A stretch of DNA of 64,000 nt from Candidatus Latescibacterota bacterium (lineage in GTDB: Bacteria; Latescibacterota; UBA2968; UBA8231), in assembly GCA_965203355.1 (NCBI GenBank), contig OZ241889.1, forward strand, positions 1,440,001-1,504,000, written 5' to 3'. Made by a program: the position numbers and the translations under genes. Positions 23,190 through 64,000 of this stretch are shown piece by piece; the stretch's first letter is position 1; each line of letters starts with the position of its first letter. The notes below the pieces were generated by a model, which searched no databases, was not told the DNA's origin, and saw only the letters and a list, made by a program, of their open reading frames with translations.

Positions 23190-23225
23190 GTCTTTCCCTC
23201 CCACAGGTTGGTGACGTGTTGGTGG

Positions 23226-31782: not shown

Positions 31783-31925
31783 GATTGCTCTCCTTTCGTG
31801 GTTTGAGCAAACTTGCAGCCTTTGCAAGCTGTGATATGCGGAATAGCGATCAAATCGCGGCGGGTAATAATACAACTGCAAAAAATAAAGCGCAATGTAA
31901 AATTGTCTCGATTTGGGCCCGAAAA

Positions 31926-31959
31926 TGGACGTGGCGGCGGCCAAGAGGCATACTTAAAC
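31926..31959 (+). promoter_or_regulatory. Putative promoter, copy B of the 34-bp repeat
   Basis: TGGACG-N17-CATACT upstream of the ThuA-like remnant; 28/34 identical to 15824-15857. Confidence 0.55.
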
Positions 31960-34535: not shown

Positions 34536-34618
34536 AGTGTTCCTCTCGCGTTTTGCCTTCCCTTGACAAGGCCCGCCGCCGCGTCCGACCTTCCGCAGAT
34601 ACAACAGGAGCGTCTCTC

Positions 34619-37827: not shown

Positions 37828-38859
37828 TCAACCTTGAATGGCTGCACCCATCCGATCGCTGAGGCGGATCAACTCGCCGCCGCTTTCGGCCGAGGCATTG
37901 GCTGCCAAAACGGCGGCGAGGCTGTTGAGGGACGGGACGTACGGGCTGCGCGGCATGGCTGGATCGCCGGCTTGGACGGCGGCGATAAAGGCGCGAGCTT
38001 GGGCGAAGAAAGCCCCGCGCGGTTGCGGCTCTTGTTGCGCTTCCCACACCACCTCGCCGTTTTCCATCACTTTTCGTGGGGTCCATTCGATGATTGAGTC
38101 GTCGCTGACGACGAGGATTTCGCGCTTGGAGTACGAGACGTTGCTCAGGACCCGCGAGACGCTGGCGTTGGCGGTTACGCGCCCTTTGAAACGGTAGTTG
38201 ACGTTGTACACGTGGGGCAGGTTCATCGGCTCAATGCGTTCGCCGGGCAGCGATTCGACGTAAAAGGCCGAGACGGCCTCAATGTCGCCGAGGAAGTAGC
38301 GCAACAGATCGACGCTGTGAATGGTGTTTTCGACGAAGGAGCCGCCGCAGAGTTCGTAGCGGCTGGTCCAGTAGCGGATTGGTTGGCCGCTGTAGAAGTT
38401 TTGGATTTGGGCGTGGCGCGGTGTGCGCTGCTGCAATAGCGCCAAGGTCGGCGCAGAAGAAGGCTCGTAGCGATAGACAAAGCCGACTTGGGATACGATG
38501 CCGGCCTTTTCGACGGCGGCGTTGAACTCGGCGACCTGGGCCAGATCGAGGGTCTGCGGTTTTTCGACGAACAGGGCGACGCCTTGGTCGGCGGCGATGA
38601 GCACCTCGTCGGTGTGGGCGGTCGGCGGAATGCACAAGTAAACCGCGTCGAGTTCCTGCTCGGCGAACATCTGGTGGTGATCCGCATAGGTCGCGCGAGG
38701 CTTGTAGATGGCCGCTTGTTGTTGGAGGGTTTCGTCGCTTTTGTCGCAGAAGGCCTGGAAAACGACTTGGCCTTCCTCGGCGAGGGCCGCTAACGCCGGG
38801 AGGTGCGCCTTTTGGGTGATCCAGCCGAGGCCGATGCAGCCGACGCGGACCGGTTTCAT
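37828..38859 (-). CDS. Gfo/Idh/MocA family oxidoreductase
   Basis: VGCIGLGWI, FVEKP, GFVYRY, ENTIHSVD. Confidence 0.9.
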   Translation of the reverse strand: MKPVRVGCIGLGWITQKAHLPALAALAEEGQVVFQAFCDKSDETLQQQAAIYKPRATYADHHQMFAEQELDAVYLCIPPTAHTDEVLIAADQGVALFVEKPQTLDLAQVAEFNAAVEKAGIVSQVGFVYRYEPSSAPTLALLQQRTPRHAQIQNFYSGQPIRYWTSRYELCGGSFVENTIHSVDLLRYFLGDIEAVSAFYVESLPGERIEPMNLPHVYNVNYRFKGRVTANASVSRVLSNVSYSKREILVVSDDSIIEWTPRKVMENGEVVWEAQQEPQPRGAFFAQARAFIAAVQAGDPAMPRSPYVPSLNSLAAVLAANASAESGGELIRLSDRMGAAIQG

Positions 38860-38877: not shown

Positions 38878-39780
38878 TTAAGCGGTGAGTGCTTCAATGC
38901 GGGCGATGAGTTCGGGCGACAAGTAGCGGCCGTCGGAAACAGCCGCCGAGACTTCGAGTTCGTCCAGCGTTGCCGCGCCCGTGAGCAGCACGGCGACTTG
39001 GGGGTCTGACAGCAGGTAGCGCAGCCCGTGGTCGGGCATGTCGCCGGGTTCGTCGGCGAGCAGGGCTTCGACTTTTTCGAGTTTGGGATACAGTTCGGCA
39101 AAGCGGCCAGCCTCCGGCCAGACGTCGCGCTTGGAGCCGAGCAGGCCGGCGTGTAGCGGCGAGGCGAGGATGATGGCGATGTCGCGGGCGGCCGCTGTAG
39201 GCAGGAGGATCTCCTTGGCCGTTTGCACCAGCAGGTCGTATTTGAGAAAGGTGATCACCGAGACGAAATCGTCGCACTCGGCGAGCACATCGCGCATCAG
39301 TACGAGGTCTGAGCCGGTGAGGCCGATGTGTTGTGCGAGTCCCTGCGCGCGGATTTCGAGCAAGGTCTCGAGGGCGCGTTCTCGGCCGAAGATGCCCTCC
39401 CAGCCCGCCTGCTCGGCCTCGTGGAGTTGCAACAGATCGACCGAATCGCGCTGCAAGCGCCGGAGGCTGGCCGCAAATCCCCGCCAGATGGTATCGCGGG
39501 TGTAGTCGAAGGGCGCGGGATAGTAGCCTATCTTGGTCGCCAGATAATAGGGCGCATCCACGCCTTTGAGGGCGTGGCCGAGGACCTTTTCGCTGCGGCC
39601 TTGGCCGTAGAGCGGGGCCGTGTCAAAGTAGTTGATGCCCAATTCGAGGGCGCGCTCGACCATGGCGACCCCGTGTGCTACGGGCCGGAGGCCGTATTCC
39701 GGGCGTCCGTAAAACCAAGACCCGCCCAGGGCGATTTCGCTGACTTGCCAGTTCGTTTTGCCGAATCGTCGGTATCGCAC
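38878..39780 (-). CDS. Aldo/keto reductase
   Basis: RYRRFGKT..VSEIALG, FDTAPLYG, ATKIG, SLRRLQRDSVDLLQLH. Confidence 0.92.
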   Translation of the reverse strand: MRYRRFGKTNWQVSEIALGGSWFYGRPEYGLRPVAHGVAMVERALELGINYFDTAPLYGQGRSEKVLGHALKGVDAPYYLATKIGYYPAPFDYTRDTIWRGFAASLRRLQRDSVDLLQLHEAEQAGWEGIFGRERALETLLEIRAQGLAQHIGLTGSDLVLMRDVLAECDDFVSVITFLKYDLLVQTAKEILLPTAAARDIAIILASPLHAGLLGSKRDVWPEAGRFAELYPKLEKVEALLADEPGDMPDHGLRYLLSDPQVAVLLTGAATLDELEVSAAVSDGRYLSPELIARIEALTA

Positions 39781-39928: not shown

Positions 39929-41233
39929 ATGATGGGCCAACGTAGCGCACTTTCGCGGTTTATCGGCATTCCGTTGCACTGGCAGATCGCCATTGCCCTC
40001 GTTCTCGCCGCATTAGTAGGGTGGCTGGGCGACGAGCACACGACGCTTTTTGGCGCGTCGTTGCTGGAAATTCTCGATTTCTTTGGCGGTTTGTTCCTCA
40101 ACGCGCTGAAGATGATCGTGGTGCCGCTGATTCTGTCGTCGATCATCGTCGGCGTCCGCAACATGGCGAGCCAGAACGCCTTTGGACGCATTGGCGGGAA
40201 GACGGTGGCGTTTTACGTGGCGACGGGATGGCTGTCGGTTTGCACGGGGCTCGTTTGCGTGAATCTCATAGCACCCGGCGAGACGGCGGCGGCGCGGGCG
40301 CTGGGTGCTGCGCTGCCAGACCCGTCGCAAGTCATGGCCAAGGTCGAGGGGCGCGGCATCCAAGATCTGATTCAGGTTCTCAAGCGCGCCATACCGTCCA
40401 ACATCTTCGCGGCCGCGCTAGAGGTGCAACTGCTGGCGTTGGTGTTTGTCGGAGTTGTGTTTGGGTATTTCATGTCGCGGCTGAACGGGCCGTCCGGCGA
40501 TGTTCTACAGCAGTTCTGGGCCGGCCTGCACGACCTCATGATCCTGATCACGATGTGGATCATGCGGTTTGCTCCCATCGGCGCGTTTGCGCTGGTGGGC
40601 AAGACGTTGCTCGTCTCGGGTTTTGCCGCGCTTGAAGCGTTGGGCCTGTTTTTCCTGACCGTATTGCTGGCCCTGGCCGTGCATTTTGCCGTCTGGTTGC
40701 CGCTGCTGCTGCGCTTGGTTGCCGGCATCAGCCCGTATGCCTACTACGCCAAAATCGCGCCAGCGCAATTGACCGCGTTTTCTACGGCGTCGTCTTCGGC
40801 TACCTTGCCGGTGACCATCAACAGCGCCGAACGGGCGGGCATCTCCAACCGCGTGACCAGCTTTGTCCTGCCGTTGGGCGCGACGGTGAACATGGACGGC
40901 ACGGCGCTCTACGAGTGCGTGGTGGTGGTGTTCATCGCCCAAGTGTACGCGTTTACGTCTGGCATAGATTTTGGCGTGGCCGAGCAGATGATCGTCGTAT
41001 TGCTCGCCTTGCTCACGTCGATCGGCGTGGCGGGCATCCCGGCGGCCAGCTTGGTCGCCATCGCGCTGATCTTACCGGCGGTTGGCCTGCCGGTGGAAGC
41101 TATCGCCATCGTCTTGGCCGTTGATCGCCTGCTCGATATGTGCCGAACAGCCGTCAACGTGACCAGCGATTTGGCGATCACAGCGCTGGTAGCGCGCACC
41201 GAAGGCGAAGATTTGCCGGATGTCGCGGCTTGA
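39929..41233 (+). CDS. Dicarboxylate/amino acid:cation symporter (DAACS, GltP-like)
   Basis: AFSTASSSATLP, PLGATVNMDGTALY, AVDRLLDMCRTAVNV. Confidence 0.95.
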   Translation: MMGQRSALSRFIGIPLHWQIAIALVLAALVGWLGDEHTTLFGASLLEILDFFGGLFLNALKMIVVPLILSSIIVGVRNMASQNAFGRIGGKTVAFYVATGWLSVCTGLVCVNLIAPGETAAARALGAALPDPSQVMAKVEGRGIQDLIQVLKRAIPSNIFAAALEVQLLALVFVGVVFGYFMSRLNGPSGDVLQQFWAGLHDLMILITMWIMRFAPIGAFALVGKTLLVSGFAALEALGLFFLTVLLALAVHFAVWLPLLLRLVAGISPYAYYAKIAPAQLTAFSTASSSATLPVTINSAERAGISNRVTSFVLPLGATVNMDGTALYECVVVVFIAQVYAFTSGIDFGVAEQMIVVLLALLTSIGVAGIPAASLVAIALILPAVGLPVEAIAIVLAVDRLLDMCRTAVNVTSDLAITALVARTEGEDLPDVAA

Positions 41234-48872: not shown

Positions 48873-51800
48873 ATGGCCGCGCACACCGAACGCGATTTCG
48901 AGGAGGCGATTGAAGCCGGGCTGACCGGCTCCGGCGGCTACGAGACGCGAAGCTCGAAAGCCTACGACGAAACGCTCGCCCTATTTCCCGGCGATGTTGC
49001 CGATTTCTTGAAGGAAAGCCAGCCCGCCAAATGGCAGGTGCTGGAAACGCTTCTTGGGCCGAAAACCGCGGCGACGGTGCTGGCCAGCCTGTCGAAGGAA
49101 TTGGAGATCAAAGGTACGCTCCACGTTCTGCGCCACGGCTTCAAATGCTACGGCAAAACCTTCCGCATGGCCTATTTCCGGCCCAACACCAACATGAACC
49201 CCGAGGCCGCGGCGAACTACGCCAAAAATCGGCTGACCATCACGCGCCAAGTGGCTTTCACCTCGGCTATGAAGAAGGCCGACGGCAAAAACCGCCGCTG
49301 CATCATTGACGTGACGCTTGCGGTCAACGGCATTCCGGTCGTTACCGCCGAACTCAAGAACCCGCTGACCGGACAATGCGCCGCTCATGCGATTCGCCAG
49401 TATGAGGACGAGCGGGACGAGCGCGATCTCCTCTTCGCTTTCAAGAAACGCGCACTGGTCCACTTTGCCGTGGACCCAGACGAGGCGTGGATGACGACGC
49501 GGCTCAGGGGCAAGGAAACTCGCTTCCTGCCTTTTAATCGAGGCAACGACCACGGGGCGGGCAATCCGCCGGTCGCCGGCAACTGGAAGGCCCATTACCT
49601 GTGGGACGAGGTGCTACAAGCCGACAGTCTGCTGGAAATCTTGCAACGCTTCATGCACCTCGAAGCAAAGGAGACGCGGGTCAAGACCAACAAGGGTGTG
49701 CGCACCGTGCGGCAAGAGACGATGATCTTTCCGCGCTATCACCAACTTGATTCGGTCCGAAAACTCGTCGCCCACGCCAAAGCTAATGGCGCGGGCCGGA
49801 ACTACCTGATCCAGCATTCGGCCGGTTCCGGCAAGTCGAACTCGATTGCGTGGCTCGCGCACCGGCTGGCCAGCCTGCACGACGAACGCGACGACAAGGT
49901 GTTTCATTCCGTCGTGGTCGTGACCGATCGGCGCGTACTCGATCGGCAGTTGCAGGAGACGATCTATCAGTTCGAGCACAAGACTGGCGTAGTCGAGAAA
50001 ATCGACGAGGACACCCAGCAACTGGCAAAAGCGCTGTCGCAGGGTACGCCCATCGTCATCACGACGATCCAGAAATTCCCCTTCATCTCGCAGGCACTCG
50101 CGACGCTTGAGCAGAAGGGTTCCGGTGTGCAGATCGACACGGCGGGAAAGCACTTCGCCGTCATTGTCGATGAAGCGCATTCGTCCCAGAGCGGCGCGAC
50201 CGCGACCGCTCTCAAGGGCATGCTGAACAAGGAAGGAATCGAAGCGGCCATTGCCGCGCAGCTTTCCGAAGAAGAGGACGACGATCTGTCGGACGAGGCG
50301 AAAGCGGCCGTGTTGCGCGATGCGCTGCGACGCACCAAGCAGCCGAACCTCAGTTTCTTCGCCTTTACGGCCACGCCGAAATTCAAGACGAAGGCCCTGT
50401 TCGACGAGCCCGGCTCGTCCGGCGCGTCACCCTTCCACGAGTACACCATGCGGCAAGCCATTGAGGAAGGCTTCATCATGGATGTGCTCGAGAACTACAC
50501 GACCTACAAGCGTTTCTTCGGCTTGGTCAAACAGGTCGAGGACGATCCCGACGTGCCGCGCAGGAAAGCCGCGAAGGCCCTGACGCGCTATCTGGAGCTT
50601 CATCCCGTCAATATTGAGCAAGTCGTTTCCGTCATCGTCGAACATTTCCGACTTCATGTGATGCACGAGCTCGGCGGACGCGCAAAGGCGATGGTTGTCA
50701 CGGGATCTCGCCTTGCCGCCGTGAGATACAAGCTCGCCTTTGACCGCTACATTGAAGAGCAAGGCTACACTGGCATCCGTTCGCTGGTGGCCTTCTCGGG
50801 TACAGTTGACGACCCGGATGACCCGGGATCGTCGTACACTGAAGTGGCGATGAACGACGGACTTGCTGAAAGCGAACTCCCGGAAGCCTTCGGACGCGAC
50901 GATTACCGGGTGCTGCTGGTCGCGGAGAAGTATCAGACCGGCTTCGATCAGCCGTTGTTACAGACGATGTATGTGGTGAAGCGGCTGGCTGGCGTTCAGG
51001 CGGTTCAGACCCTCTCTAGGCTCAACCGCATCGCGCCCGGTAAATCGCGGACCTTCGTGCTCGATTTCGCCAACGAGGAAGATGAGATCTACCAAGCGTT
51101 CAAACCCTATTACGAAACCACGCCTGTTGGCGAGAACGCCGATCCGCAGCGCCTGTCGGAACTGCAACACCGCCTACTGGAATGGAAGATATTTACGCCG
51201 GCCGATGTAACCGATTTCGCCCGAGTCTGGTATCGCCGCAAACGCGACCTGTCCGCAAATGATCACCGCATTATGAACGCCGTTCTTGATCTCGTTGTGC
51301 GGTGCTTTGAGGATCGCCGGGAGGAAGAACGAGAGGAGTTTCGCGGCCAGTTGAAAGCCTATCGAAACCTCTACGCCTTTTTGTCGCAGATCATTCCGTA
51401 TCAGGACAGCGATCTTGAACGGCTCTACGCTTTCGCAAGGAATCTCTTGGCGAAACTCCCGCCGCCGGGTGATGGCCAAGCCTTCGTTCTCGACGATGAG
51501 GTGGCACTCCAGTTCTTTCGGCTTCAGCAGATGACCGAAGGCTCTATTGACCTCTCGGAAGGCTACACTCGTCCCCTGAAGGGGCCGACCGATGTCGGCA
51601 CCGCGGGCGTCAAAGACAAAGCGGTGACGCTTTCGAGCTTGATCGACCGCCTCAACGAGCGGTTCGGCACCGATTTCACCGAGGCGGATCAGTTGTTCTT
51701 CGACCAGATACGTGCTTCGGCAGAGAACGACGAGAGCGTTTCGGAGGCCGTACGCGCCAATAATTTCGCAAACTTCGCCGCTTATCTGGATCGCCTGCTG

Positions 51801-51932
51801 GACGAACTGTTCATCGCGCGCATGGAAGGCAACGAAGAAATCTTCAAGAGGGTGATGACGGATACTGAGTTCCGTTCAGCCGCACATGAGCACTTGGCCC
51901 GCGAGATTTTCCAACGGGTGCGCGAAGCATAG
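48873..51932 (+). CDS. hsdR: Type I restriction endonuclease subunit R
   Basis: D..NGIP..ELKN nuclease motif, HSAGSGKS Walker A, DEAH, FTATP, TGFDQP. Confidence 0.95.
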   Translation: MAAHTERDFEEAIEAGLTGSGGYETRSSKAYDETLALFPGDVADFLKESQPAKWQVLETLLGPKTAATVLASLSKELEIKGTLHVLRHGFKCYGKTFRMAYFRPNTNMNPEAAANYAKNRLTITRQVAFTSAMKKADGKNRRCIIDVTLAVNGIPVVTAELKNPLTGQCAAHAIRQYEDERDERDLLFAFKKRALVHFAVDPDEAWMTTRLRGKETRFLPFNRGNDHGAGNPPVAGNWKAHYLWDEVLQADSLLEILQRFMHLEAKETRVKTNKGVRTVRQETMIFPRYHQLDSVRKLVAHAKANGAGRNYLIQHSAGSGKSNSIAWLAHRLASLHDERDDKVFHSVVVVTDRRVLDRQLQETIYQFEHKTGVVEKIDEDTQQLAKALSQGTPIVITTIQKFPFISQALATLEQKGSGVQIDTAGKHFAVIVDEAHSSQSGATATALKGMLNKEGIEAAIAAQLSEEEDDDLSDEAKAAVLRDALRRTKQPNLSFFAFTATPKFKTKALFDEPGSSGASPFHEYTMRQAIEEGFIMDVLENYTTYKRFFGLVKQVEDDPDVPRRKAAKALTRYLELHPVNIEQVVSVIVEHFRLHVMHELGGRAKAMVVTGSRLAAVRYKLAFDRYIEEQGYTGIRSLVAFSGTVDDPDDPGSSYTEVAMNDGLAESELPEAFGRDDYRVLLVAEKYQTGFDQPLLQTMYVVKRLAGVQAVQTLSRLNRIAPGKSRTFVLDFANEEDEIYQAFKPYYETTPVGENADPQRLSELQHRLLEWKIFTPADVTDFARVWYRRKRDLSANDHRIMNAVLDLVVRCFEDRREEEREEFRGQLKAYRNLYAFLSQIIPYQDSDLERLYAFARNLLAKLPPPGDGQAFVLDDEVALQFFRLQQMTEGSIDLSEGYTRPLKGPTDVGTAGVKDKAVTLSSLIDRLNERFGTDFTEADQLFFDQIRASAENDESVSEAVRANNFANFAAYLDRLLDELFIARMEGNEEIFKRVMTDTEFRSAAHEHLAREIFQRVREA

Positions 51933-53662: not shown

Positions 53663-54661
53663 ATGCCGTTGAGCCGTCGTCGCTTCATGCGCGAGGCCGC
53701 GTTAGCCGCTGGCGGTCTCGCCCTCGCCAGAACAGCACGCGCAGAAAAGGACATCCCCATGAGTGCCGATCGCCCGCTCTTTGTCTCCACTTGGCCCTTT
53801 GGCAAAGCCGCCAACGAACAATCGCTGCGGATCGCCCAACAAGGCGGCTCGGTTCTCGACGCGGTCGAGCGCGGCATCCACGTGGCCGAGGCTGACGCCT
53901 CTAACGCATCCGTGGGATTGGGGGGCATACCCAACGCCGAGGGCGTGGTGCAGCTCGACGCCTGCATCATGGATGGCGAGGGGCAACGCGCTGGCAGCGT
54001 CGCCGCTATCGAGGGAATCCTGCATCCGATCTCGGTGGCGCGCCGAGTGATGGACGAGACCAAGCACGTCATGCTCGTCGGCGAAGGGGCGCGGCAGTTT
54101 GCGCTGGAGCAGGGTTTTGCCCGCGTTGATTTGCTCACCGAAGAGAGGCGCGAGGCGTGGGAGGCGTGGCGGGAAAAGCAGGGCGCGGCTGACAATCACG
54201 ACACCATCGCTCTGCTTGGAATCGACGGTGCAGGGCGGATCGCGGGCGGCTGCTCGACTAGCGGCTGGGGGTACAAGCTGCCGGGCCGCGTTGGGGATTC
54301 GCCGATTATTGGCAGCGGCTTGTACGTCGATGGGGGCGTGGGCGCGGCTGGTGCGACGGGCTTGGGCGAGAATGTCATGCGCTACTGCGCCACCTTCCTC
54401 GCGGTCGAGTACATGCGTCAGGGGCTGCACCCGGAGGAAGCCTGCGTCGAGACCATCCGCCGCATCGTCGCGCTCGACCCGCGTCCGGTCGAGGAATTGC
54501 ACCTCAACTTCGTCGCGCTCGACAAGCAGGGCCGCTTTGGCGCGGCCGGCACCAACGAGGGCTTCCAATACGCCGTTACCTATCCCGGGTACAGCGAGGT
54601 GCTCACGGGCGTTGGGGTGGGCACGGGCGAGATCGGCCCCGAGGGGGGCAATCGGCGCTGA
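53663..54661 (+). CDS. N(4)-(beta-N-acetylglucosaminyl)-L-asparaginase / isoaspartyl peptidase (Ntn hydrolase) with Tat signal
   Basis: SRRRFM Tat motif; STWPFG, QLDACIMD, HDT autocleavage site, GRVGDSPIIG. Confidence 0.9.
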   Translation: MPLSRRRFMREAALAAGGLALARTARAEKDIPMSADRPLFVSTWPFGKAANEQSLRIAQQGGSVLDAVERGIHVAEADASNASVGLGGIPNAEGVVQLDACIMDGEGQRAGSVAAIEGILHPISVARRVMDETKHVMLVGEGARQFALEQGFARVDLLTEERREAWEAWREKQGAADNHDTIALLGIDGAGRIAGGCSTSGWGYKLPGRVGDSPIIGSGLYVDGGVGAAGATGLGENVMRYCATFLAVEYMRQGLHPEEACVETIRRIVALDPRPVEELHLNFVALDKQGRFGAAGTNEGFQYAVTYPGYSEVLTGVGVGTGEIGPEGGNRR

Positions 54662-54718
54662 GTGGCGCAGATGCGATTGGCTTCCCATTGCACGCCCCTT
54701 GTGGGCATCCTTGGGCAC

Positions 54719-55621
54719 CTACAGGCTATTGTCTTTATTTTCGCGCACTAGCAAATAGACGACCAAGGCGATTACATTGCCCAAGAAACCGAACAGGCCC
54801 CAAATTGTGGCTCTTTCTCGTTTCTTTTGGGCGTCTAGGGTCATCCACGCCGGGATGGAGAGCCAGAAGAGGATTAGGCCGATTAAGGTCACGAGCGTGA
54901 ATATGTTCATCCACAGTCTGAGCCTTTCCTTTTTCTCCCAATACTGCCCTAGCGACTGAGTTCCAGGCATCAATCGGGGGGGTGCCACGGCGATGGCGAC
55001 TAAGCCGTCTTTGACGCGGGTCATTGCCACGGGCCTAGGGGATGTGACTAGGTGCTTTGGGATTAGGTCTCGGTCTTGGCTGGAAAGGTCTCTACCACCA
55101 ATTACCGCAGGCAATAGGATAGCGGTCCGCTGTATGGGCTGAAGCAGACCTTCGGGCACGGTCTCCAATAGTTCAATTTTCGCCGTCTCTTCTTGCGAGT
55201 AATCGTGCAGGACGCGGACGACGACGACAGCGCGCAAGTGGGGTGGTAGGGCTGCGAGCAGTTGGTGGGCGGCGGCTTCGTCGTCGCGCTTGAGCAAGTG
55301 GTCGTGGGGGCTGCGAGTTGGCGGCTCGGCCATTTGCTCGGCTGGAATGCTCGTGCTTTGGCGGCGCAACTCGTCCATGCACAGGTTGTGGGCTATGGTA
55401 TAGAGCCAAGTTGAAAATTTGCCCCGCGGCTTGAAGCGGTCGGCGTTTTCCAATACGCGCATGTACGTCTCCTGAAACACGTCTTCTGCCAAGGCCGCGT
55501 CCTGCACGATCCGCAAGATAAAATTGAAAAGGGCCTGGCGATGGCGCGTGTAAAGCGGGTCAAACGCCTGCATATCTCCTTGGCGGAGATTGCCCATCAA
55601 TGCTTCGTCGCTCCATCCCAT
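54719..55621 (-). CDS. ECF sigma factor truncated in region 4 and fused in frame to a membrane-protein C-terminus (probable deletion chimera)
   Basis: AEDVFQETY..FSTWLYTIAHNLCMDELRR (region 2), LPPHLRAVVV..YSQEETAKI, then unrelated sequence ending in TM helices; no GTVKSRL-type recognition helix. Confidence 0.72.
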   Translation of the reverse strand: MGWSDEALMGNLRQGDMQAFDPLYTRHRQALFNFILRIVQDAALAEDVFQETYMRVLENADRFKPRGKFSTWLYTIAHNLCMDELRRQSTSIPAEQMAEPPTRSPHDHLLKRDDEAAAHQLLAALPPHLRAVVVVRVLHDYSQEETAKIELLETVPEGLLQPIQRTAILLPAVIGGRDLSSQDRDLIPKHLVTSPRPVAMTRVKDGLVAIAVAPPRLMPGTQSLGQYWEKKERLRLWMNIFTLVTLIGLILFWLSIPAWMTLDAQKKRERATIWGLFGFLGNVIALVVYLLVRENKDNSL

Positions 55622-55852: not shown

Positions 55853-57145
55853 CTAGCGGGCTATCGCTAGCTGCAACGCCTCAACGGCGCGGTCAATGTC
55901 GGTCTCGTCGTTGAAGATGTGCGTGGAGATGCGGATGGCGTTGTAGTTTTCCTTGGGTACGCCCGCGTCTTCCACAAAGGCGTACGTGCCTTGGGCTGGT
56001 TTGAGGAAGATGTCGCGCTTTTTCACGGCCGCGACGACTTCGCTGTGGTTGCCGCTGGTGAGCGAGAAGCTGACGATGCCAGCGGACAACGCGCGCTGGG
56101 GTGGGGTGATCGGGGTGAGTTGGGGGATTTCCGCGAGGTGCTGGCGGGCGTAGGCGCAGAGTTGGCGGCAGCGTGCTTCAATGCGCGGGCGGCCGATGGT
56201 GTTGTGAAAATCCATCGCCACCCCGTGCGCGACAATCTGCGGTACATTGCGGGTGCCAGACGAGGCCGAATAGGTGCTGTAACCGGAATACGTGAACACG
56301 GGCCGGACGCGATCTTGCACTTCCCGGCGGATGTAGAGCAGGCCCGTGCCCTTGGGTGCGAGCATCCACTTGTGGCTGCTGGAGGCATAGGTATCCACGC
56401 CGAGTGCTTTGACGTCGACGTCGATCATGCCCGGGGCTTGCGCTCCGTCGCAGACCAGCAGGATGTCGCGGGGGCGGGTGAGGGCGGCGATGGCGGCGAG
56501 TGGCATTTGCAGCCCGGTGATGGTGTCGATGTGGCTGAAGCTGCACACGCGGGTGCGCGGCGTTAGGTGATCCTCCACTAGTTGCAGGATCTGGGCGGCA
56601 TCGCGCACGGGATTGGGCATTTTGATGTAGCGAACCACGACGCCGCGGGTGTGCGCCAAGTGCTGCCAGCAGACCATGCCGCCGCCGTGCTCGTGATTGG
56701 TCGTCAGCACCTCGTCGCCCGGCTGGAGATCGAGGCCGCTGGCTACGTGATTCATGCCTTCGGTCGTGTTGCGCGTCAGCGCGACTTCTTCCAGTGCGGC
56801 CCCAATGAACTCGGCCCCTTTAGCGCGCACCACTTCCATCTCATGGCCGAGGCCCCCCCAGGTGTTGGCCAGCGGATTGCCCTCCAACTCGGCGAGATAC
56901 GCTGTCAGGGCGTCCGTCACCACGCGGGGCGTCGCGCCAATGCTGCCGCAGTTGAGATGCACGAGCCCCGGGTGCAGGCGAAACTCTCGCCGGACGCGCT
57001 GCCACAGGGCGCGTGCGCTGCTGGCGCCCGCCACGTCTCGATTGAGGGAGCCGAGCCGCTCGGCCAGCCCGGCCGCGGCGTTGGGAAGGAATGGGGTTGC
57101 GGCCGCGGCCGCGGCGATTCCTTTGAAGAATGCTCTGCGTTCCAT
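55853..57145 (-). CDS. Class V PLP-dependent enzyme with Tat signal
   Basis: ERRAFF Tat motif; TRNTTEG, CDGAQ, SSHKW. Confidence 0.88.
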   Translation of the reverse strand: MERRAFFKGIAAAAAATPFLPNAAAGLAERLGSLNRDVAGASSARALWQRVRREFRLHPGLVHLNCGSIGATPRVVTDALTAYLAELEGNPLANTWGGLGHEMEVVRAKGAEFIGAALEEVALTRNTTEGMNHVASGLDLQPGDEVLTTNHEHGGGMVCWQHLAHTRGVVVRYIKMPNPVRDAAQILQLVEDHLTPRTRVCSFSHIDTITGLQMPLAAIAALTRPRDILLVCDGAQAPGMIDVDVKALGVDTYASSSHKWMLAPKGTGLLYIRREVQDRVRPVFTYSGYSTYSASSGTRNVPQIVAHGVAMDFHNTIGRPRIEARCRQLCAYARQHLAEIPQLTPITPPQRALSAGIVSFSLTSGNHSEVVAAVKKRDIFLKPAQGTYAFVEDAGVPKENYNAIRISTHIFNDETDIDRAVEALQLAIAR

Positions 57146-57196: not shown

Positions 57197-58384
57197 ATGT
57201 CTTGGTGCAAATCCTCTCTGCTCTTGTTGGCAATTGTCGGCTGGGCGGAAGCAACCGAATCAGCGCACGAAGCGCAGGGCGACCGCTCGATGCGCGCTGG
57301 CCATTACGGCCAAGCCGCCAGCCACTACCAGCGCGCCGTTGATCAGGGCGCGAGATCGGCGGTGCTCTACCGCAAGTTGGCCGCGGCCGCGGCGAAAAAC
57401 GAAGCCCTGCCCGCGGCCGTCCGCGCGTACGAGCAGGCCATGGCCCTAGCGCCGAGCCATGCCAAGACGCGGACCGAATTGGCTATTCTGTTTACGCGCC
57501 TCGACCGCTACGACGATGCTTGGGCCTTGCTCAAACAGACCGTACGGGAGCAGCCCGACCACGCCCGAGCGCACCTGGTGCTGGGCTTGCTACACGCTCG
57601 CGAGGGGCGCTATCCAGCCGCGATGGCCGCCTATCAGCGTGCGATTGCGGCCGTGCCTAGCTACGGAGAGGCGTGGTTCAATCTCGGCGAAGCCTATCTC
57701 AAGCAAAACGACTATGCGGCCGCTGAGCAAGCCTTTAGGCGGGCCGTAGCGGCGGACGCGACCTCGGCCCAATTTCGCAATGGTTTGGGGCGCAGCTATT
57801 ATCTCCGGCGCGACTATGCGGTGGCCGCGGCCGAATTTAGCCGCGCCGTGCGGCTGGATTCGCTGTTTGCCCAAGCCCGCTTCAACCTCGGCAATGCGTT
57901 GCTGCGCGCTGGGCAGAAGGAAGCAGGGCGACGCCAGCTCGCGCTGTACAAGCGGCTCGACGACGAAGAAGAGCGAATCGCCATGCTAAAAAACACCTTG
58001 GCGACGCATCCAGACGACGCGGGCGCGTACCACGACTTGGCTGTGGTGTACGGGCAGCGCGGCCAATACCAAGAAGCGCGCATCCGCTACCTCCAGGCTC
58101 TCGACCGCGACCCGACGTTCGCGCCCGCGCACCACAACCTCGGCAACATCCACTTCCGCCGCGGGGAAATGGCGGCGGCCGAGCAGCGATTTCGCCAAGC
58201 ATTGCAAGCCGATTCCACGTATGCCCTCGCGCACTTGGGTTTGGGCAATGTCCAGATGTTGCGCAAGCAGTACGAGCGCGCCATGGCCTCCTTCCGCTGC
58301 GGCCTGAGCTACCTGCCCGACCACCCCAAGCTCCGCCGCAATCTCGCGGTCGCCGAGCAAATCGCCGCGCAGGTGGGCCCATGA
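57197..58384 (+). CDS. Tetratricopeptide repeat protein (module copy 2)
   Basis: Signal peptide; TPRs; shares LDSLFA(R/Q)ARF.LGNALLR, GRRQLALYK, YGQRGQY.EAR and ADSTY.LAHL with copy 1. Confidence 0.9.
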   Translation: MSWCKSSLLLLAIVGWAEATESAHEAQGDRSMRAGHYGQAASHYQRAVDQGARSAVLYRKLAAAAAKNEALPAAVRAYEQAMALAPSHAKTRTELAILFTRLDRYDDAWALLKQTVREQPDHARAHLVLGLLHAREGRYPAAMAAYQRAIAAVPSYGEAWFNLGEAYLKQNDYAAAEQAFRRAVAADATSAQFRNGLGRSYYLRRDYAVAAAEFSRAVRLDSLFAQARFNLGNALLRAGQKEAGRRQLALYKRLDDEEERIAMLKNTLATHPDDAGAYHDLAVVYGQRGQYQEARIRYLQALDRDPTFAPAHHNLGNIHFRRGEMAAAEQRFRQALQADSTYALAHLGLGNVQMLRKQYERAMASFRCGLSYLPDHPKLRRNLAVAEQIAAQVGP

Positions 58385-60018
58385 TGCCGCGCATTATGGT
58401 GTGGGCCAGCGTTGTGTGCGCCGCGCTCGCGGCCGCCGATCCAACCCCGCAATTTGTCGAGATCACCGAGGAGGCGGGCCTAGATTTTCGCTATGTCAAC
58501 GGGGCCAGCGGCCACAAGTACATGGTGGAAGCCGTCGGCTCGGGCGCGGCTTTTTTCGACAGCGATGGCGATGGGTGGCTCGACCTGTACATTGTCAATG
58601 GTGCGCCCATGCCCGGTTATCGCGGCCCGACTAGTCCCAACGCGCACTATCGCAACCAACGAGATGGGACCTTTGCCAATGTCACAGCCGCGGCTGGCAC
58701 GGGCGACGCGGGCTTTGGCATGGGCGCGGCGGTCGGCGACTACGACAACGATGGCGATGCGGATTTATACTTGACCAACTACGGGCCGAATGTGTTGTAC
58801 CGAAATGAAGGGGTCGGGGTTTTCGCGGACGTCACAACGGCCGCGGCGGTCGGGGATGCAGGGTGGGGTACGCACGCGGCTTTTGTCGATTACGATCGCG
58901 ATGGCGATTTGGATTTATACGCGGCCAATTACATGGAGTTCGACCCGGCTCAAAACGAGGAATGCTTTGCTGGCACGGTGAGGATTTACTGCGGCCCCAA
59001 TACATACCCCGGGCAAGCGGGCGTGTTCTACCGCAACGACGAGGGGAGCCGCTTTGCCGATGTGACGGCACAAGTCGGCCTCGCCGACGATTCGGGCCGC
59101 CAGCTCGCGGCGGTATTTGGCGATTGCGACAACGACGGAGACGCCGATCTGTTCGTCGCCAACGACAAGCGGCCCAACTTTCTCTTCTACAACAACGGCG
59201 ATGGAACGTTTAGCGAAAAAGGCGCTGAGGCCGGCGTGGCGTACAACGAGGAAGGGTTGGCCGAGTCGGCGATGGGGGCCGATTGGGGCGACTACGACAA
59301 CGACGGCTTGCTCGACATTATTGTGGCGACCTTCCAGTGGCTACCCAACACGCTCTACCACAACGATGGCGATGGGTTCTTCACGGATGTCACGTTTGCG
59401 GCCAACTTAGGCGTGTCCAGCGTGCCGTATCTCGGCATGACGTCCGCCTTTTTCGACTACGACAACGACGGGTTCCTCGATGTGTTCGTCAGCAACGGGC
59501 ACCTCGACGAGAACGTGGAAGAATACGACCCGGCTACCACGTATCCACAGCGCAACCAGCTCTTCCGCAACCAAGGCGACGGTTCGTTTGCCGAGGTGAC
59601 CGAGCACAGCGGGCCGGGGATGTTGGTCGAGCGCGTCAGCCACGGCGCGGTGTTCGGCGACTGCGACAACGACGGAGACGTGGATATATTCGTCTCGGAC
59701 TCGGCTGCTCCTCACTGCACCCTGCTGCGCAATGATGGCGGCAATGCCAATCGCTATCTGACGGTTGAGGTCGTTGGCACCGCGAGCAATCGGGATGGCA
59801 TCGGCGCGCGCGTCCGCGCCGTGGCCGGCGATTTGGTGCAAATGCGAGAGATCCGCCGCAGCTATGGCTATATGGGTTCTAACGACGTGCGTCTGACAAT
59901 CGGCTTGGGCGACCGAACGCAAGTCGATACATTGCAAGTCCATTGGCCTAGCGGCGCGATGCAGACGCTGGTGGGGGTGGAGGCTGATCAGCGTATTGTG
60001 ATTCGGGAGGATCGCTGA
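58381..60018 (+). CDS. CRTAC1/ASPIC-UnbV family protein (module copy 2)
   Basis: FG-GAP DxDxDG repeats and UnbV C-terminus; clearly paralogous to 17218-18849. Confidence 0.92.
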   Translation: MMPRIMVWASVVCAALAAADPTPQFVEITEEAGLDFRYVNGASGHKYMVEAVGSGAAFFDSDGDGWLDLYIVNGAPMPGYRGPTSPNAHYRNQRDGTFANVTAAAGTGDAGFGMGAAVGDYDNDGDADLYLTNYGPNVLYRNEGVGVFADVTTAAAVGDAGWGTHAAFVDYDRDGDLDLYAANYMEFDPAQNEECFAGTVRIYCGPNTYPGQAGVFYRNDEGSRFADVTAQVGLADDSGRQLAAVFGDCDNDGDADLFVANDKRPNFLFYNNGDGTFSEKGAEAGVAYNEEGLAESAMGADWGDYDNDGLLDIIVATFQWLPNTLYHNDGDGFFTDVTFAANLGVSSVPYLGMTSAFFDYDNDGFLDVFVSNGHLDENVEEYDPATTYPQRNQLFRNQGDGSFAEVTEHSGPGMLVERVSHGAVFGDCDNDGDVDIFVSDSAAPHCTLLRNDGGNANRYLTVEVVGTASNRDGIGARVRAVAGDLVQMREIRRSYGYMGSNDVRLTIGLGDRTQVDTLQVHWPSGAMQTLVGVEADQRIVIREDR

Positions 60019-60130
60019 GGCGGTTTGACGATAGGGAGGTCTTGGGCGATAATTTGAATTGTGGTTGGTCGGCGGTTCAGTTTATCCACTCGACGCTGAT
60101 GTGTGCTATGACTAAAAAAGGAAAAAGGCC

Positions 60131-60427
60131 ATGCACTTTATAGTATCGTGGGATATTAATGCCGAAGGCGAGGAGTGGGATGCGCTCAACGCTCAGTTAA
60201 AAGAGTGCATAGAAGACTATTCTTGGGTGCGCCCACTGAGCACTTTTTACGTCGTTAGGGTATCCGCTCCGCAAGAATGGCAAGAAATCAAGAAAAGCCT
60301 CATAGAAGTAGCTGAGGATTCTTCAATTAGGATACATCTCGTCATTGGTCCTTTAATGTCTGGGGGGCAATACGAAGGCTATCTTCCCCAGGATTTTTGG
60401 CCAGAATTGGAAAAGAGAATAGCCTAA
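60131..60427 (+). CDS. Small hypothetical protein, possible Cas2/VapD-like ferredoxin fold
   Basis: MHFIVSWDI N-terminal strand ending in Asp; AAGG RBS; lower GC. Confidence 0.6.
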   Translation: MHFIVSWDINAEGEEWDALNAQLKECIEDYSWVRPLSTFYVVRVSAPQEWQEIKKSLIEVAEDSSIRIHLVIGPLMSGGQYEGYLPQDFWPELEKRIA

Positions 60428-60963
60428 TGAGAGAGTCTGGCCAAGACACGGAATCTGCAAAGCACTTCGAGACTGACTTCGACTCGCCTACGCCACTTGC
60501 TAGAACAACCGTGGTAGTCTCCGTGCCGCAGAACCTTAAATGGGTGGACAAGCATATTGAAAGTTCGAAAGCACTTTTTGGCTCTAAAGAAGATGCGCTG
60601 AATAGGCTTTATGACCTACGGATGGAGTGCGCCGAACCTGACTGGGATGGCTATGGTGCCGAGGCCATTAGCCCAATCGCGTTTGAGCGCAGCGAACAGT
60701 TCATCCGTCGGTTGCCGGAGGGCTTGCCGTTACCGGAAATATCCGTGGAGCCGGATGGCGAAATTGCTCTCGACTGGTCTCCGACTCCGACGCAGACATT
60801 TTCTGTAAGTATAGGTACTGGGGCTCGAATGGCTTGTGCTTGGGTTAATGGGACAGAGCACGGACACGTAGTGGTGTCCAGCAATAATGGTGAGATTCCT
60901 CTGCGCATCCTTCAAGAGATTCAATACATAACCAATAATGATTCTGTCTTCAGGACTACCTGA
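60427..60963 (+). CDS. Hypothetical protein with WDGYGA motif
   Basis: PDWDGYGAEAIS..LPEISVEPDGEIALDW; TAATG coupling to the upstream ORF. Confidence 0.65.
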   Translation: MRESGQDTESAKHFETDFDSPTPLARTTVVVSVPQNLKWVDKHIESSKALFGSKEDALNRLYDLRMECAEPDWDGYGAEAISPIAFERSEQFIRRLPEGLPLPEISVEPDGEIALDWSPTPTQTFSVSIGTGARMACAWVNGTEHGHVVVSSNNGEIPLRILQEIQYITNNDSVFRTT

Positions 60964-61150
60964 AGAAGTTGCCGATGGCGAGCCGCTTGCTCGTTTTCTC
61001 ACTTCTTCTGGGCAATTCAATAGGTCGGCGGTTAAACAAGCTGCTTTTTTGCCAAAGAAACAGCCATATTGCTCGCGCAAAAGGCTGAACTCGTCCTATT
61101 TCCGGCGACCTAAAAAAATCCTATTACCACGTGCAATACCCACTAGCTAG
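60938..61150 (+). pseudogene. Probably truncated small ORF (toxin-like N-terminus)
   Basis: LPEEVADGEPLARFL..FNRSAVKQAAFLP, then the sequence degrades into the PPIase upstream region. Confidence 0.4.
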
Positions 61151-62489
61151 CATCTTCGCGCTCCTCGTCTTGAGCAGCGCAGCGCTAGGCGCGGAGGAAA
61201 CAGTCCTGCGCATCGGCGATAAGAGCATATCCGTAGAGGAGTTCGCGCAAACAGCGCAAAAGCTCCGAGAGACCGGCTACAGCCACGTTGAGGCGTTAGA
61301 TCGGCCGGGCAAGCAGGAATTGCTCGATGGCGTCATCGCGCGGGAATTGCTCATTGCCGAAAGCCTCCGGCGCGGATACGACCGCGATTCGGCTATCGCC
61401 CAAGCCGTGGCTAAGAGCGAGCGCCAAGCACTGATGAACAAGCTCTACGAGCAGGAAGCCGTGCAGGCGTCGTATTCGTTTACCGAGGAAGAGTTGCGGG
61501 CGTTTTTTGCCGGGCGGCAATACGACATTGAAGTGTTCAGTCAGCACATTGTCTGCGCCACCGAAGAAGAGGCCCGGCTCGTCCTTGAACTGCTCGAGGA
61601 AGGGACGCCTTTTGAATCGCTGATCAGACCCTATTCGCTGCCGAACATCCAGCAGCGCTTTGGTCCCGGCGGTTGGGTCGGCTGGTTCAAGGTTGGGGAA
61701 GTGTTCGACGAGCTGAAAGAGCCGCTGGGGACGATGCGCCCCGGCAGCACGTACCCCGAACCCGTGCGGACGTCCATCGGCTACCACGTCTTTCGGCTCA
61801 AGGAACGGCGTCCGGTTGACTTCGCGGCCGTGCGCGAGTGGGTCGAGGGACAAGCGCGGCTCCAAAGCCGCGCCGACGACATGGAGCGCTACGTCGTTGC
61901 GCTGCGCGAGCGGTATGAGTTGGCGCTGGACGCGGAGGTTTTTGCCGAGTTGCTCGCCCTTCCGCCGCAAGCGACGCAGTGGAAGGGAGGGGAGGCGCCG
62001 CTGCTCACTTGGCGCGGAGGCCAGCTCATAGCGCAGGAGTACCTCGCCTTAGTCGAGCGGGGCCGTGCGCCGCACCCGGCCGAACTCGACAGTGCGCGTC
62101 TGTACAAGGCCGTGGACAATCTCGCCGGCAAGCAGATCATGGTGGCGGAAGCCCGCAAGCTGGGGATCGCCGATGATGCGGATATCCGCGCCAGCGTCGA
62201 GCGGGAACGAGACGCCCTGTTGGTCAAGCGGCTCTACCAAGCCGAGGCCGAGCGGGCCGGGGAAATCGGCGACGAAGCCGTGCGGGCCTTTTACGATCAG
62301 CACCTCGATCAGTTTACGCGCCCGGATGGTCAAGTAGTGGATTTTGCTTTTGTGCGCGAGAGCATTCGCGCGGCTCTGCGAATGCAGGCCGAGACCGAGG
62401 TCATGGACGCGCTATTGGCCGAGTTGCGCGAGGCGTATGCCGGCCAAATACAGGTGTTCCCAGCGGCGTTGGAAAAAGCGTTTGAATGA
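61131..62489 (+). CDS. PpiC/SurA-like peptidyl-prolyl isomerase (module copy 2)
   Basis: HIVCATEEEA, QRFGPGG.VGWFK, GYHVFRL; paralog of 18866-20209. Confidence 0.82.
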   Translation: MQYPLASIFALLVLSSAALGAEETVLRIGDKSISVEEFAQTAQKLRETGYSHVEALDRPGKQELLDGVIARELLIAESLRRGYDRDSAIAQAVAKSERQALMNKLYEQEAVQASYSFTEEELRAFFAGRQYDIEVFSQHIVCATEEEARLVLELLEEGTPFESLIRPYSLPNIQQRFGPGGWVGWFKVGEVFDELKEPLGTMRPGSTYPEPVRTSIGYHVFRLKERRPVDFAAVREWVEGQARLQSRADDMERYVVALRERYELALDAEVFAELLALPPQATQWKGGEAPLLTWRGGQLIAQEYLALVERGRAPHPAELDSARLYKAVDNLAGKQIMVAEARKLGIADDADIRASVERERDALLVKRLYQAEAERAGEIGDEAVRAFYDQHLDQFTRPDGQVVDFAFVRESIRAALRMQAETEVMDALLAELREAYAGQIQVFPAALEKAFE

Positions 62490-62490
62490 T

Positions 62491-64000
62491 CTAGCGATCC
62501 GTGCCCAAGCCCGCGTACACCGTGATGAAGGAGAGCAGTTCGGACGAAGCCGGCGATCCGTCAAAGCTGTTGCGGATCCAGCGGGCGCCGACGTTGGTCG
62601 TCAAGGCGTAGCCCAAGTACGCGGAGTTGTTGGCGACTTGGGCGGCGAGCACCCACGTGGTGCCGTCGAGCAGGTAGCCCGAGGGCAGGGGATTTGGGGC
62701 GGGGCGGAGATTGTTGAACAGCTCGCACTCGGCTCCGGCGATGAAGCTCATGTTGCGGTTGATGCTGCGCACGGCTTGCAGCGAGAAAATTTCCGTTAGC
62801 TCGCGGATTTTGAGTGCGTTGGGCTGGGCTGGCACTCGGCTGTTGTAAAGCTGTTTCCACTTGGGCACCAGAGTCCATCCGCGAATGTGGGTAGAGTACT
62901 CGCCTTTGACCACAATGCCCAAGAAGTGCTGGTCGCGCAACTTGTTTTCCCAATCCCCTAATTGCCGATAGAATTCGTGTTTGACCTTGACCGTCAAAGG
63001 CAGGTAGCGGTCGTAGTGTACTTCGAGATATGTGGTGTTGATGAAGGCGTTGCGCGCCAGCAAGAGGTCGCGGGTAAAGACCGAGCGGCCGCGCGTGCCG
63101 GGCAGGTCGCGCCACAGCAGCACATCGTCGGGAATGTCGTCTTTGACCCGGCGCGGATTGGCGATCAGCCACGCGCTGAAATCCTTTGCCGGGAGCTCCT
63201 TTTTTGCGGTCAGCAGCAGGTAGGCGGCTTGGTTTTCCCGGGCCGTTTCCAGCAAGCTCTGGTCGAGATAGCCGACCATGAGGTTCATGCGCGGCAAAAT
63301 CTCGATGGCGGCATAGGTGTTGAATCCTCGGCGGCCCAGTTTGTAGGGATAATCGGCTTCTCCGTCGTCCTCAAAGCGGTCGATGACGCCATTGCTGTTC
63401 ATGTCCATGCCGAACAAAAACTCCGGCGGATCCACGTCAAAGCGCAGAAACGGCTCCTCGTAGTCGGGCTGGGTGTTGAAGTTGCGGTTGAAATCCGAGA
63501 TGTCGTCGTTGTCTTCGTCAATGCCCGGAAAGACCGCGGCGTCGGTCAGCAACTGCTGCCCCTGTCGCGTGTTGACGCGGCTGCCGAACGTGCGCCGCGT
63601 CCAATCCGGTAACTCGTCTTGATCGTCGTTGTCATCGACGAATTCGTACAGGTGCCGTTGCTCGTTGTCGTAAAACACCTCTCCCTCGGCGTTGGGGATG
63701 AAGGCGCGGGTGGAGTAATCGGCGTCGATGCTGAAAACCTCGGCGAAAAAGGTGTAGGGATAGCTGCGCTTCTGCGCGGTCGCGTACATGGCTTGGGCCG
63801 CATGGGTCGCCAGCGTCTGGTTTGTGGCCATGTTCTCGTTGGGAAAGCGGCGGTACTGAAAGTTGCGGACAAACTCGCCCCGGAAGTCAAAGCCTTGCAG
63901 GTCGGCAATGGCGAGGTCAAAGCCCAACATGCGGGTCCCGGTCGGCAGGCCGTAGCTGAACCGGTGGAATGCCTGATTTGAGCCGTCCTTGACGTTGCCG
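62491..64000 (-). CDS. Large Asp-rich putative outer-membrane protein (module copy 2), 3' part; 5' end outside the window
   Basis: Frame is open to the window edge (GNVKDGSNQAFHRF..); shares FVDDNDDQDELPDWTRR, LRGE.VRNFQYRRFPNEN and GYALTTNVG.RW with 20556-23189. Confidence 0.85.
   Translation of the reverse strand, partial: GNVKDGSNQAFHRFSYGLPTGTRMLGFDLAIADLQGFDFRGEFVRNFQYRRFPNENMATNQTLATHAAQAMYATAQKRSYPYTFFAEVFSIDADYSTRAFIPNAEGEVFYDNEQRHLYEFVDDNDDQDELPDWTRRTFGSRVNTRQGQQLLTDAAVFPGIDEDNDDISDFNRNFNTQPDYEEPFLRFDVDPPEFLFGMDMNSNGVIDRFEDDGEADYPYKLGRRGFNTYAAIEILPRMNLMVGYLDQSLLETARENQAAYLLLTAKKELPAKDFSAWLIANPRRVKDDIPDDVLLWRDLPGTRGRSVFTRDLLLARNAFINTTYLEVHYDRYLPLTVKVKHEFYRQLGDWENKLRDQHFLGIVVKGEYSTHIRGWTLVPKWKQLYNSRVPAQPNALKIRELTEIFSLQAVRSINRNMSFIAGAECELFNNLRPAPNPLPSGYLLDGTTWVLAAQVANNSAYLGYALTTNVGARWIRNSFDGSPASSELLSFITVYAGLGTDR

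Follow-up and report, generated by a model that had tools for sequence, protein, structure and literature searches.

We analyzed a 64,000-nt stretch of the genome of a Candidatus Latescibacterota bacterium (contig OZ241889.1), the whole of which is referred to here as the window. Its last part, positions 57197-64000, carries four genes with paralogs at 16025-23204, and the two places are called copy 2 and copy 1, respectively. They are sister copies of one cassette type, and the whole cassette was duplicated long before the species compared below split. Genes were called from the open reading frame (ORF) listing together with Pfam (E ≤ 0.01) and NCBIfam scans of the window proteins. In both copies an operon encoding a tetratricopeptide repeat (TPR) protein, a CRTAC1-like propeller and a parvulin-type peptidyl-prolyl isomerase (PPIase) converges on an operon encoding a large outer-membrane (OM) barrel protein and, in copy 1, proteins with C-terminal tails. 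The genes at the two copies are as follows.

57197-58384, + strand: TPR protein, copy 2 (TPR2); many TPR Pfam families; 48% identical to copy 1
58381-60018, + strand: CRTAC1-like FG-GAP propeller, copy 2; FG-GAP_3 170.8 bits, UnbV_ASPIC 74.8 bits
61131-62489, + strand: parvulin-type PPIase, copy 2; Rotamase_2 60.2 bits, weak SurA-like N-terminal similarity
62491-64000, - strand: large OM barrel protein (∼880-890 aa), copy 2; C-terminal 502 codons, the gene being cut by the window end
16025-17215, + strand: TPR lipoprotein, copy 1; lipobox LVAC
17218-18849, + strand: CRTAC1-like propeller, copy 1; FG-GAP_3 176.6 bits, UnbV_ASPIC 74.1 bits
18827-20209, + strand: parvulin PPIase lipoprotein, copy 1; lipobox LAAC, start probably at 18866
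20556-23204, - strand: OM barrel protein of 882 aa, copy 1; no Pfam or NCBIfam family
23451-25901, 25927-28062 and 27942-29951, - strand: three paralogous F5/8-type-C proteins with CHU_C/FlgD_ig C-terminal tails, copy 1
29957-30874, - strand: lipoprotein U305, copy 1; lipobox SGC
30841-31944, - strand: TW..IK protein U367 (367 aa), copy 1; C-terminal TW..IK
32589-34604, - strand: membrane protein with DUF6785/DUF6784 (Pfam 382.6 and 93.8 bits), encoded by the first gene of the copy 1 operon

BLASTP comparison of copy 1 with copy 2 gave 195/404 identical residues for the TPR proteins (48%, E = 4e-119), 393/540 for the propellers (73%, E = 0), 227/444 for the PPIases (51%, E = 2e-145) and 325/501 for the barrels (65%, E = 0; residues 385-881 of copy 1). 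A sequence-only reading of this DNA had proposed four paralogs in the same order and orientation at both places, and the 48-73% identity bears this out; the three peptide blocks that it quoted as shared are present in both copies in the alignments. Synonymous divergence between the copies is saturated (dS 1.07-1.55, dN 0.20-0.46 by the NG86 method, which was used for all dN/dS estimates), and the duplication is therefore old and no assembly artefact, in agreement with that reading. Its description of the large protein as Asp-rich holds mainly for an insert at residues 500-605 (18% Asp); the protein as a whole contains 7.6-8.2% Asp. The TPR-to-propeller junction is a 2-base gap in copy 1 and a 4-base overlap in copy 2. 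The propeller and PPIase ORFs overlap in copy 1 and are parted by an insert in copy 2. The converging ends of the PPIase and barrel genes lie one base apart in copy 2 and are separated by a 346-base spacer in copy 1.

The final 60 bases of the window matched nothing exactly in the genome_contigs and metagenome_contigs collections; a contig of run X1 extends about 13 kb beyond 64000. The closest complete relative, G001, with a 4.52-Mb chromosome, served as a stand-in for the DNA past position 64000. It holds both copies, 50 kb apart vs. about 42 kb in the window. The barrel at its copy 1 locus (L001) is 97% identical to copy 1. The full-length barrel at its copy 2 locus (L021) is 96% identical to the copy 2 fragment over 502 residues and 69% identical to the copy 1 barrel; the fragment is also 90% identical to protein P0030 (890 aa). 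Past the barrel gene, L021 follows copy 2 of the window closely (PPIase 92%, propeller 94%, TPR 91%, the flanking pyridoxal phosphate (PLP) enzyme 93% and a sigma factor 90%). Upstream of the barrel gene it encodes U367, U305 and three tailed proteins with 60, 55, and 55-58% identity to the copy 1 proteins, respectively; this U367 ends in STWGKIKNSF and this U305 carries a lipobox. The FlgD-tail genes, the lipoprotein and the TW..IK protein that the sequence-only reading predicted beyond copy 2 are thus all present in the closest relative. No DUF6785 gene was found in G001 within 12 kb further upstream of the copy 2 cassette. In the G001 copy 1 spacer an 820-aa MacB/FtsX-like ORF is located (L001 12812-15274).

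For a wider comparison, genome contigs were scanned with a barrel profile, which gave 496 relatives, and the best 80 loci were kept; 78 of these loci contain a barrel ORF, and 47 have at least 9 kb on both flanks. These 47 full-flank loci include orthologs of related genomes and are not independent. Both copies occur together in nine genomes among the best 80 loci, at distances from 50 kb to ∼1 Mb. At the remaining copy-2-type loci with enough flank, the barrel gene likewise has TW..IK, lipoprotein and tailed genes upstream of it. The tails were scored against curated families. In copy 1 the 816-aa protein reached 29.6 bits with CHU_C (cut-off 27) and 30.5 bits with TIGR04131 (cut-off 35), and the two further tailed proteins reached 35.1 and 33.8 bits with FlgD_ig (cut-off 27). 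In L021 one copy 2 tail reached 34.6 bits with FlgD_ig; the other two stayed below the cut-off with 21.8 bits (CHU_C) and 19.7 bits (FlgD_ig). The four genes had been taken as a module of their own, which did not hold up: they are the junction of two convergent operons and form one end of a cassette of ∼11 genes.

Trees were inferred with IQ-TREE (SH-aLRT support) for 30 of the 80 cassettes, comprising seven of copy 1, seven of copy 2, L012, L013, L024, L025 and 12 of other types. Of these cassettes, 29 supplied an OM, 27 a PPIase, 23 a propeller and 23 a TPR sequence. Copy 1 and copy 2 formed two clades in all four trees, each with 100% support, and the two clades were joined at 99% (OM), 95% (PPIase), 99% (propeller) and 99% (TPR). 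L012 and L013 fall within the joined group in the OM tree, on the copy 2 side, and in the PPIase tree. Each of the two clades sits on a stem that exceeds its internal divergence several-fold, and the duplication therefore long predates these species. FastTree analysis of all extracted proteins (80 OM, 47 PPIase, 40 propeller and 50 TPR rows; 2 of 82 possible cassettes had no qualifying barrel ORF) gave trees in which the same cassette types recurred as clades throughout. Within G001, copy 1 and copy 2 are reciprocal nearest paralogs for OM, PPIase, propeller, TPR, U305 and U367. The comparison of per-gene trees that the sequence-only reading had called for gave agreement among all four trees for this pair, and joint duplication of the four genes is well supported.

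We estimated the selection on each copy from orthologs in the window and G001. The dN/dS values in copy 1 and copy 2 were 0.18 and 0.19 for TPR, 0.13 and 0.14 for the propeller, 0.14 and 0.17 for the PPIase, and 0.084 and 0.096 for the large protein, respectively. The dN/dS check proposed earlier thus indicates purifying selection on both copies (0.08-0.19). The eight genes are intact and constrained, and both copies have stayed functional.

The barrel profile gave 31 matches in G001, of which 23 cover nearly the full span, two more are split and one is divergent. The same genome contains 23 near-full-length CRTAC1-like genes and 14 PPIase paralogs. The earlier suggestion of an expanded paralogous system, to be tested by a genome-wide copy count, agrees with the 23 full-length barrel genes found in G001; the cassette family is present about two dozen times per Latescibacterota genome. 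Linkage was evaluated in G001 as distance of up to 15 kb to a barrel gene, against 2000 random placements. Twelve of the 14 PPIase paralogs lie within this distance (chance mean 1.8, maximum 6). Among the 23 propellers, 13 are this close (chance mean 2.9, maximum 10). When 20 G001 loci were mapped with HMMs, a PPIase was found at 17, a propeller at 12 and a TPR gene at 14 of them, some of the TPR matches being weak. Two barrel genes adjoin or lie close together in 7 of these 20 loci (L084, L085, L086, L090, L091, L092, and L096).

Across the 47 full-flank loci, tailed genes were present at all 47, U305 at 39, U367 at 38, TPR at 39, PPIase at 35, the propeller at 29 and DUF6785 at 19. PPIase, propeller and TPR were all present at 27 loci, and at least one of the three was found at 44. 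Gene orders differ among cassette types, and some types carry all genes on one strand. That the linkage is kept despite rearranged gene orders points to function rather than to the plain inheritance of a single layout.

The deeper history within G001 was compared by correlating distances of each partner with those of the barrel:

PPIase vs. barrel: Mantel r 0.27, reached by 26/5000 permutations; nearest-paralog agreement 8/17
Propeller vs. barrel: Mantel r 0.44, 82/5000 permutations; agreement 4/10
TPR vs. barrel: Mantel r 0.41, 129/5000 permutations; agreement 2/9
U305 vs. barrel: Mantel r 0.56, 12/5000 permutations; agreement 6/9
U367 vs. barrel: Mantel r 0.31, 422/5000 permutations; agreement 2/8

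That the genes act as cognate sets, as had been proposed, does not follow from these data: genes duplicated as one segment would remain neighbors and give matching trees whether or not their products interact, and the deep congruence is modest.

The large protein has 308 homologs at E ≤ 1e-5, each of ∼880 aa and none with a Pfam domain; their sources, where named, are Latescibacterota or bins that carry the label Gemmatimonadetes. The family counts 1111 members at E ≤ 1e-3 and 392 at 1e-30 among 1.84 billion cluster representatives. An AlphaFold model from 118 sequences, which superseded a first model (15 sequences, pLDDT 59), reached pLDDT 82.8 and pTM 0.79 and has 26 strands that are 8 or more residues long. 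The best structural matches in Foldseek and VIA-align were all OM barrels (SlpA, MtrB, FimD/PapC, LptD and porins), and neither search gave a specific relative that stood out (TM ≤ 0.27, Z 10-12.5). The protein is, as modeled, a very large OM barrel of an uncatalogued family, its closure and strand number being predicted. No TonB-dependent receptor or plug domain was detected in it by Pfam at E ≤ 0.01. The 30 nearest clusters in the ESM Atlas are all without family; the nearest one with a family, DUF6029 (0.89), is a lead only. The insert at residues 500-605 contains one canonical EF-hand-like loop, which is kept in both copies.

The N-terminal residues ∼30-100 of the barrel protein (22905-23115, - strand) are strongly conserved and aromatic-rich, with W57, Y58, Y64, Y67, W69, Y74, Y77, Y82, and Y85 invariant; they lie below pLDDT 50 in the good model. 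This segment may be where a periplasmic partner docks. A complex prediction for residues 16-396 of the copy 1 TPR protein and barrel residues 30-112 gave a score of 0.00, which counts neither for nor against binding.

The propellers belong to the CRTAC1/ASPIC-UnbV family, with FG-GAP repeats and a C-terminal UnbV_ASPIC domain over the cut-offs in both copies. The parvulin domain also passed the cut-offs in copy 1 and copy 2 (Rotamase_2 43.6 and 60.2 bits, Rotamase 40.9 and 27.6 bits, respectively). SurA_N_3 matched the copy 2 PPIase only, at 21.6 bits (cut-off 27.2), and PrsA scored 49 bits vs. a cut-off of 361. Forty-one of 50 TPR family members carry a lipobox, as counted by a simple pattern. 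The lipobox Cys of this family (AIVGC in L016, L019, and L023) is a Trp (AIVGW) in TPR2, at 57245-57247, and in L021, and the lipid anchor of TPR2 may have been lost. In one case the TPR and propeller parts are fused: a 763-aa protein of G001 (L089 2886-5177) has TPR at residues 24-226 and a CRTAC1-like propeller at residues 269-752, which is the domain order of PorE. In the 99 scanned loci, no other ORF encodes such a fusion.

With moderate confidence, we favor the following reading: the region is the second member of a sister pair of cassettes that anchor type IX secretion system (T9SS) cargo to a barrel, with a PorE-like protein pair and a private chaperone. T9SS cargo folds before export. 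The three tailed, lectin-like proteins would cross the outer membrane by the T9SS and would then be held at the surface by the barrel of their own cassette, as type-B cargo is by PorP/SprF-like barrels. The barrel would be the PorP analog, and the TPR lipoprotein and the translationally coupled propeller could act jointly as a split PorE analog. The PPIase may be a private periplasmic chaperone for barrel or cargo. The four genes would then be the anchoring and assembly end of the cassette. G001 encodes SprA (629 bits, cut-off 200) and PorU (621 bits, cut-off 420), with an adjoining PorV-like gene at 151 bits, below the cut-off of 250; a T9SS is therefore at hand to export the tailed proteins.

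According to PMC9143113, PorE is an OM-associated lipoprotein that combines TPR, beta-propeller, CRD and OmpA_C domains; it is part of a complex with PorP and type-B cargo and binds PorP from the periplasm. The same source reports that six porP-like genes of F. johnsoniae adjoin porE-like genes, and that type-B cargo is held at the Bacteroidota surface by an adjacently encoded PorP/SprF-like barrel (PMC9143113). The Latescibacterota cassettes resemble the complexes of PorE, PorP and cargo with a type-B C-terminal domain (PG1035/PorP/PorE; SprB/SprF) in that tailed cargo is encoded beside a barrel, a TPR lipoprotein and a propeller, with many sets per genome, and in that the T9SS core is present, as seen in G001. 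They differ in that the barrel is ∼3 times larger than PorP and lies outside PF11751, and in that TPR and propeller are separate proteins (fused once), the propeller being of the FG-GAP/CRTAC1 type and OmpA_C missing. They also have three paralogous cargo genes per barrel and, in most sets, a dedicated parvulin PPIase, unlike the Bacteroidota sets. The PPIases are like SurA/PrsA in their parvulin domain, in the weak SurA N-terminal match of copy 2 and in the PrsA-style lipoprotein of copy 1, but score far under every NCBIfam equivalog cut-off (49 vs. 361 bits). In contrast to the single housekeeping SurA/PrsA gene, 12 of the 14 PPIase paralogs in G001 are tied to cassettes.

Several observations weigh against the anchoring model. 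The window stops at 64000, and the genes upstream in copy 2 are known from relatives alone. The tails pass curated cut-offs only partly, with two of the three L021 copy 2 tails below. The barrel is outside the PorP/SprF family PF11751 (Pfam, E ≤ 0.01), with 882 aa vs. a model of 273 positions, and no OmpA_C domain was found by Pfam in any cassette protein. Propeller and TPR are absent from many cassettes, the propeller being present at 29/47 loci and at 12/20 of those in G001. The deep within-genome congruence is modest, and strict family-wide co-divergence is unsupported. Congruent trees and joint retention are no proof of binding, because neighbors that are copied together give both anyway. 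GldM (TIGR03517) was not found in G001, and control genomes were equally silent, so that its absence is not shown; the same applies to PF11751, which gave no match in a search of G001 while the control genomes were equally silent.

The cassettes could instead serve capture and uptake of polymers, in the manner of polysaccharide utilization loci (PULs), a reading that we consider rather unlikely, although it is compatible with the anchoring model. Lectin-like proteins would catch a polymer, the barrel would be the entry channel and DUF6785/6784 the inner-membrane importer; propeller and PPIase would handle polymer or machinery in the periplasm, and the many copies would correspond to many substrates. 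The PULs of Bacteroidota (SusC/SusD) are multi-copy surface sets around a large OM barrel and surface binding proteins. The cassettes share with them the multiple copies (about two dozen per genome), the large barrel and the surface binding proteins, here with F5/8-type-C (discoidin) domains, possibly together with an ECF-type (extracytoplasmic function) sigma factor, such as the one beside copy 2. DUF6785/6784, found at the head of the copy 1 operon and at 19/47 loci, and the sugar-type oxidoreductases, lactonase, aldo-keto reductase and symporter around copy 1 also fit uptake. However, neither a TonB-dependent receptor nor a plug domain was detected in the barrel (E ≤ 0.01), no SusD-like gene was found, the mapped cassettes contain no glycoside hydrolase or lyase, and the region upstream of G001 copy 2 lacked DUF6785 over the 12 kb mentioned above.

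It is quite improbable, in our view, that the TPR-propeller-PPIase operon is an unrelated passenger of a segmental duplication, with no functional tie to the barrel and tailed proteins. Such a passenger would be expected to show congruent trees regardless, the trio runs toward the barrel operon from the opposite strand in both copies, and unrelated genes intervene in relatives (the MacB/FtsX ORF of 820 aa in L001 and the defense genes NsnABC in L021). Against this stand the linkage that persists in rearranged cassette types, including those with all genes on one strand, the 12/14 G001 PPIase paralogs near a barrel gene vs. 1.8 by chance, and the PPIase at 17/20 cassette loci of that genome. 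We give similarly little credence to a role in symbiosis, in which TPR, discoidin and CRTAC1-like 'eukaryote-like' proteins would bind animal matrix and would have been expanded for that purpose. Runs labelled as sponge metagenomes do contain the stretch or its relatives, and TPR is the commonest eukaryote-like protein in sponge Latescibacterota according to PMC12993501. Yet barrel loci with the same neighbors come from groundwater, lake (DeepCast) and other non-host metagenome-assembled genomes (e.g., L031, L061, and L032), and the TPR proteins are lipoproteins encoded beside barrels, not secreted effectors. TPR genes counted as 'eukaryote-like' in sponge Latescibacterota may partly be cassette lipoproteins.

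The anchoring model may be extended, as a tentative possibility that we regard as doubtful: each cassette would have its private line of chaperone, TPR protein and propeller matched to its own barrel and three cargo proteins, with about two dozen sets served by one T9SS. The result would be a system of surface display and capture whose barrels are unrelated to PorP, the counterpart of PULs in this phylum. Sets of cargo, PorP and PorE are known already. In literature searches we did not find the cassette described; the supplements of a paper on sponge Latescibacterota (PMC12993501) may list its genes. These searches also turned up no account of the giant barrel family, of a PorE-like pair split in two, of a private PPIase or of a two-dozen-fold expansion in Latescibacterota. 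These bacteria are uncultured, and most cassette proteins have no family name. The PorE-like reading ties the cassette to an experimentally studied complex and predicts that barrel, TPR/propeller and tailed cargo co-purify. Dedicated and multiplied SurA/PrsA-like chaperones would be unusual. By rough estimate, ∼15 kb times two dozen copies amounts to several percent of a 4.5-Mb genome, and the cassette is therefore likely central to how the cells meet their surroundings.

Other features next to the two copies are listed below.

55853-57145, - strand: class-V PLP enzyme flanking copy 2, PvdN-like, with the twin-arginine (Tat)-type RR N-terminus MERRAFFKG; Aminotran_5 214.8 bits
13061-14347, - strand: class-V PLP enzyme flanking copy 1, PvdN-like, with a Tat signal
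about 60026-61150, no strand assigned: variable insert that does not belong to the cassette, with one ORF at 60131-60427 (98 aa) and another at 60397-60963 (188 aa)
7687-8697, 14730-15800, 34514-35875, 35872-36894, 37828-38859, 38878-39780 and 39929-41233: sugar-type gene cluster around copy 1

The propeller-PPIase gap of copy 2 is a variable site. Neither copy 1 nor L019 has the 1.1-kb insert, and in a contig of run X5 position 60025 is followed directly by 61151. The two ORFs of the insert (98 and 188 aa) have no family and show a weak PADLOC match to PDC-M32A. Target-site duplications and terminal repeats were looked for around the insert and not seen. At the corresponding site of G001 (L021 14002-17352) a NsnA/NsnB/NsnC defense system is located (386, 360, and 400 bits).

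The flanking PLP enzymes of the two copies are 31% identical and lie on the minus strand just upstream of the TPR genes. Over their full length they scored 147.5 bits (copy 1) and 180.9 bits (copy 2) against NCBIfam PvdN NF051467, which has a cut-off of 650; the RR motifs in their N-termini were seen by eye. PvdN is a periplasmic pyoverdine-tailoring enzyme. Among the G001 paralogs of the copy 2 enzyme, the copy 1 ortholog ranks first by a narrow margin (166 vs. 164 bits), and the enzyme may or may not belong to the duplicated block. Just past the copy 2 PLP enzyme, at 53702-55621, lie the genes for a 300-aa ECF-like protein with sigma-70 region 2/4 and for a family-less protein of 338 aa. Contigs of RNA run X20 with 90-95% identity overlap the PLP enzyme, propeller, PPIase and barrel genes in part; these were dropped as expression evidence, since contigs at this level of identity are from a relative and DNA carry-over is possible. 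The uncovered stretches are uninformative.

The genes around copy 1 include four Gfo/Idh/MocA oxidoreductases, a 7-bladed lactonase, an aldo-keto reductase and a dicarboxylate symporter, and, to judge from these families, the cluster could point to the use of sugars or sugar acids. Elsewhere in the window, 2-12672 and 48873-51932 contain an RND (resistance-nodulation-division) efflux pump (two AcrB-type genes and one HlyD-type gene), a Fic protein and a lone type I restriction R subunit. Genes for a NrfA/NrfH-type cytochrome c nitrite reductase were found at 9235-11142.

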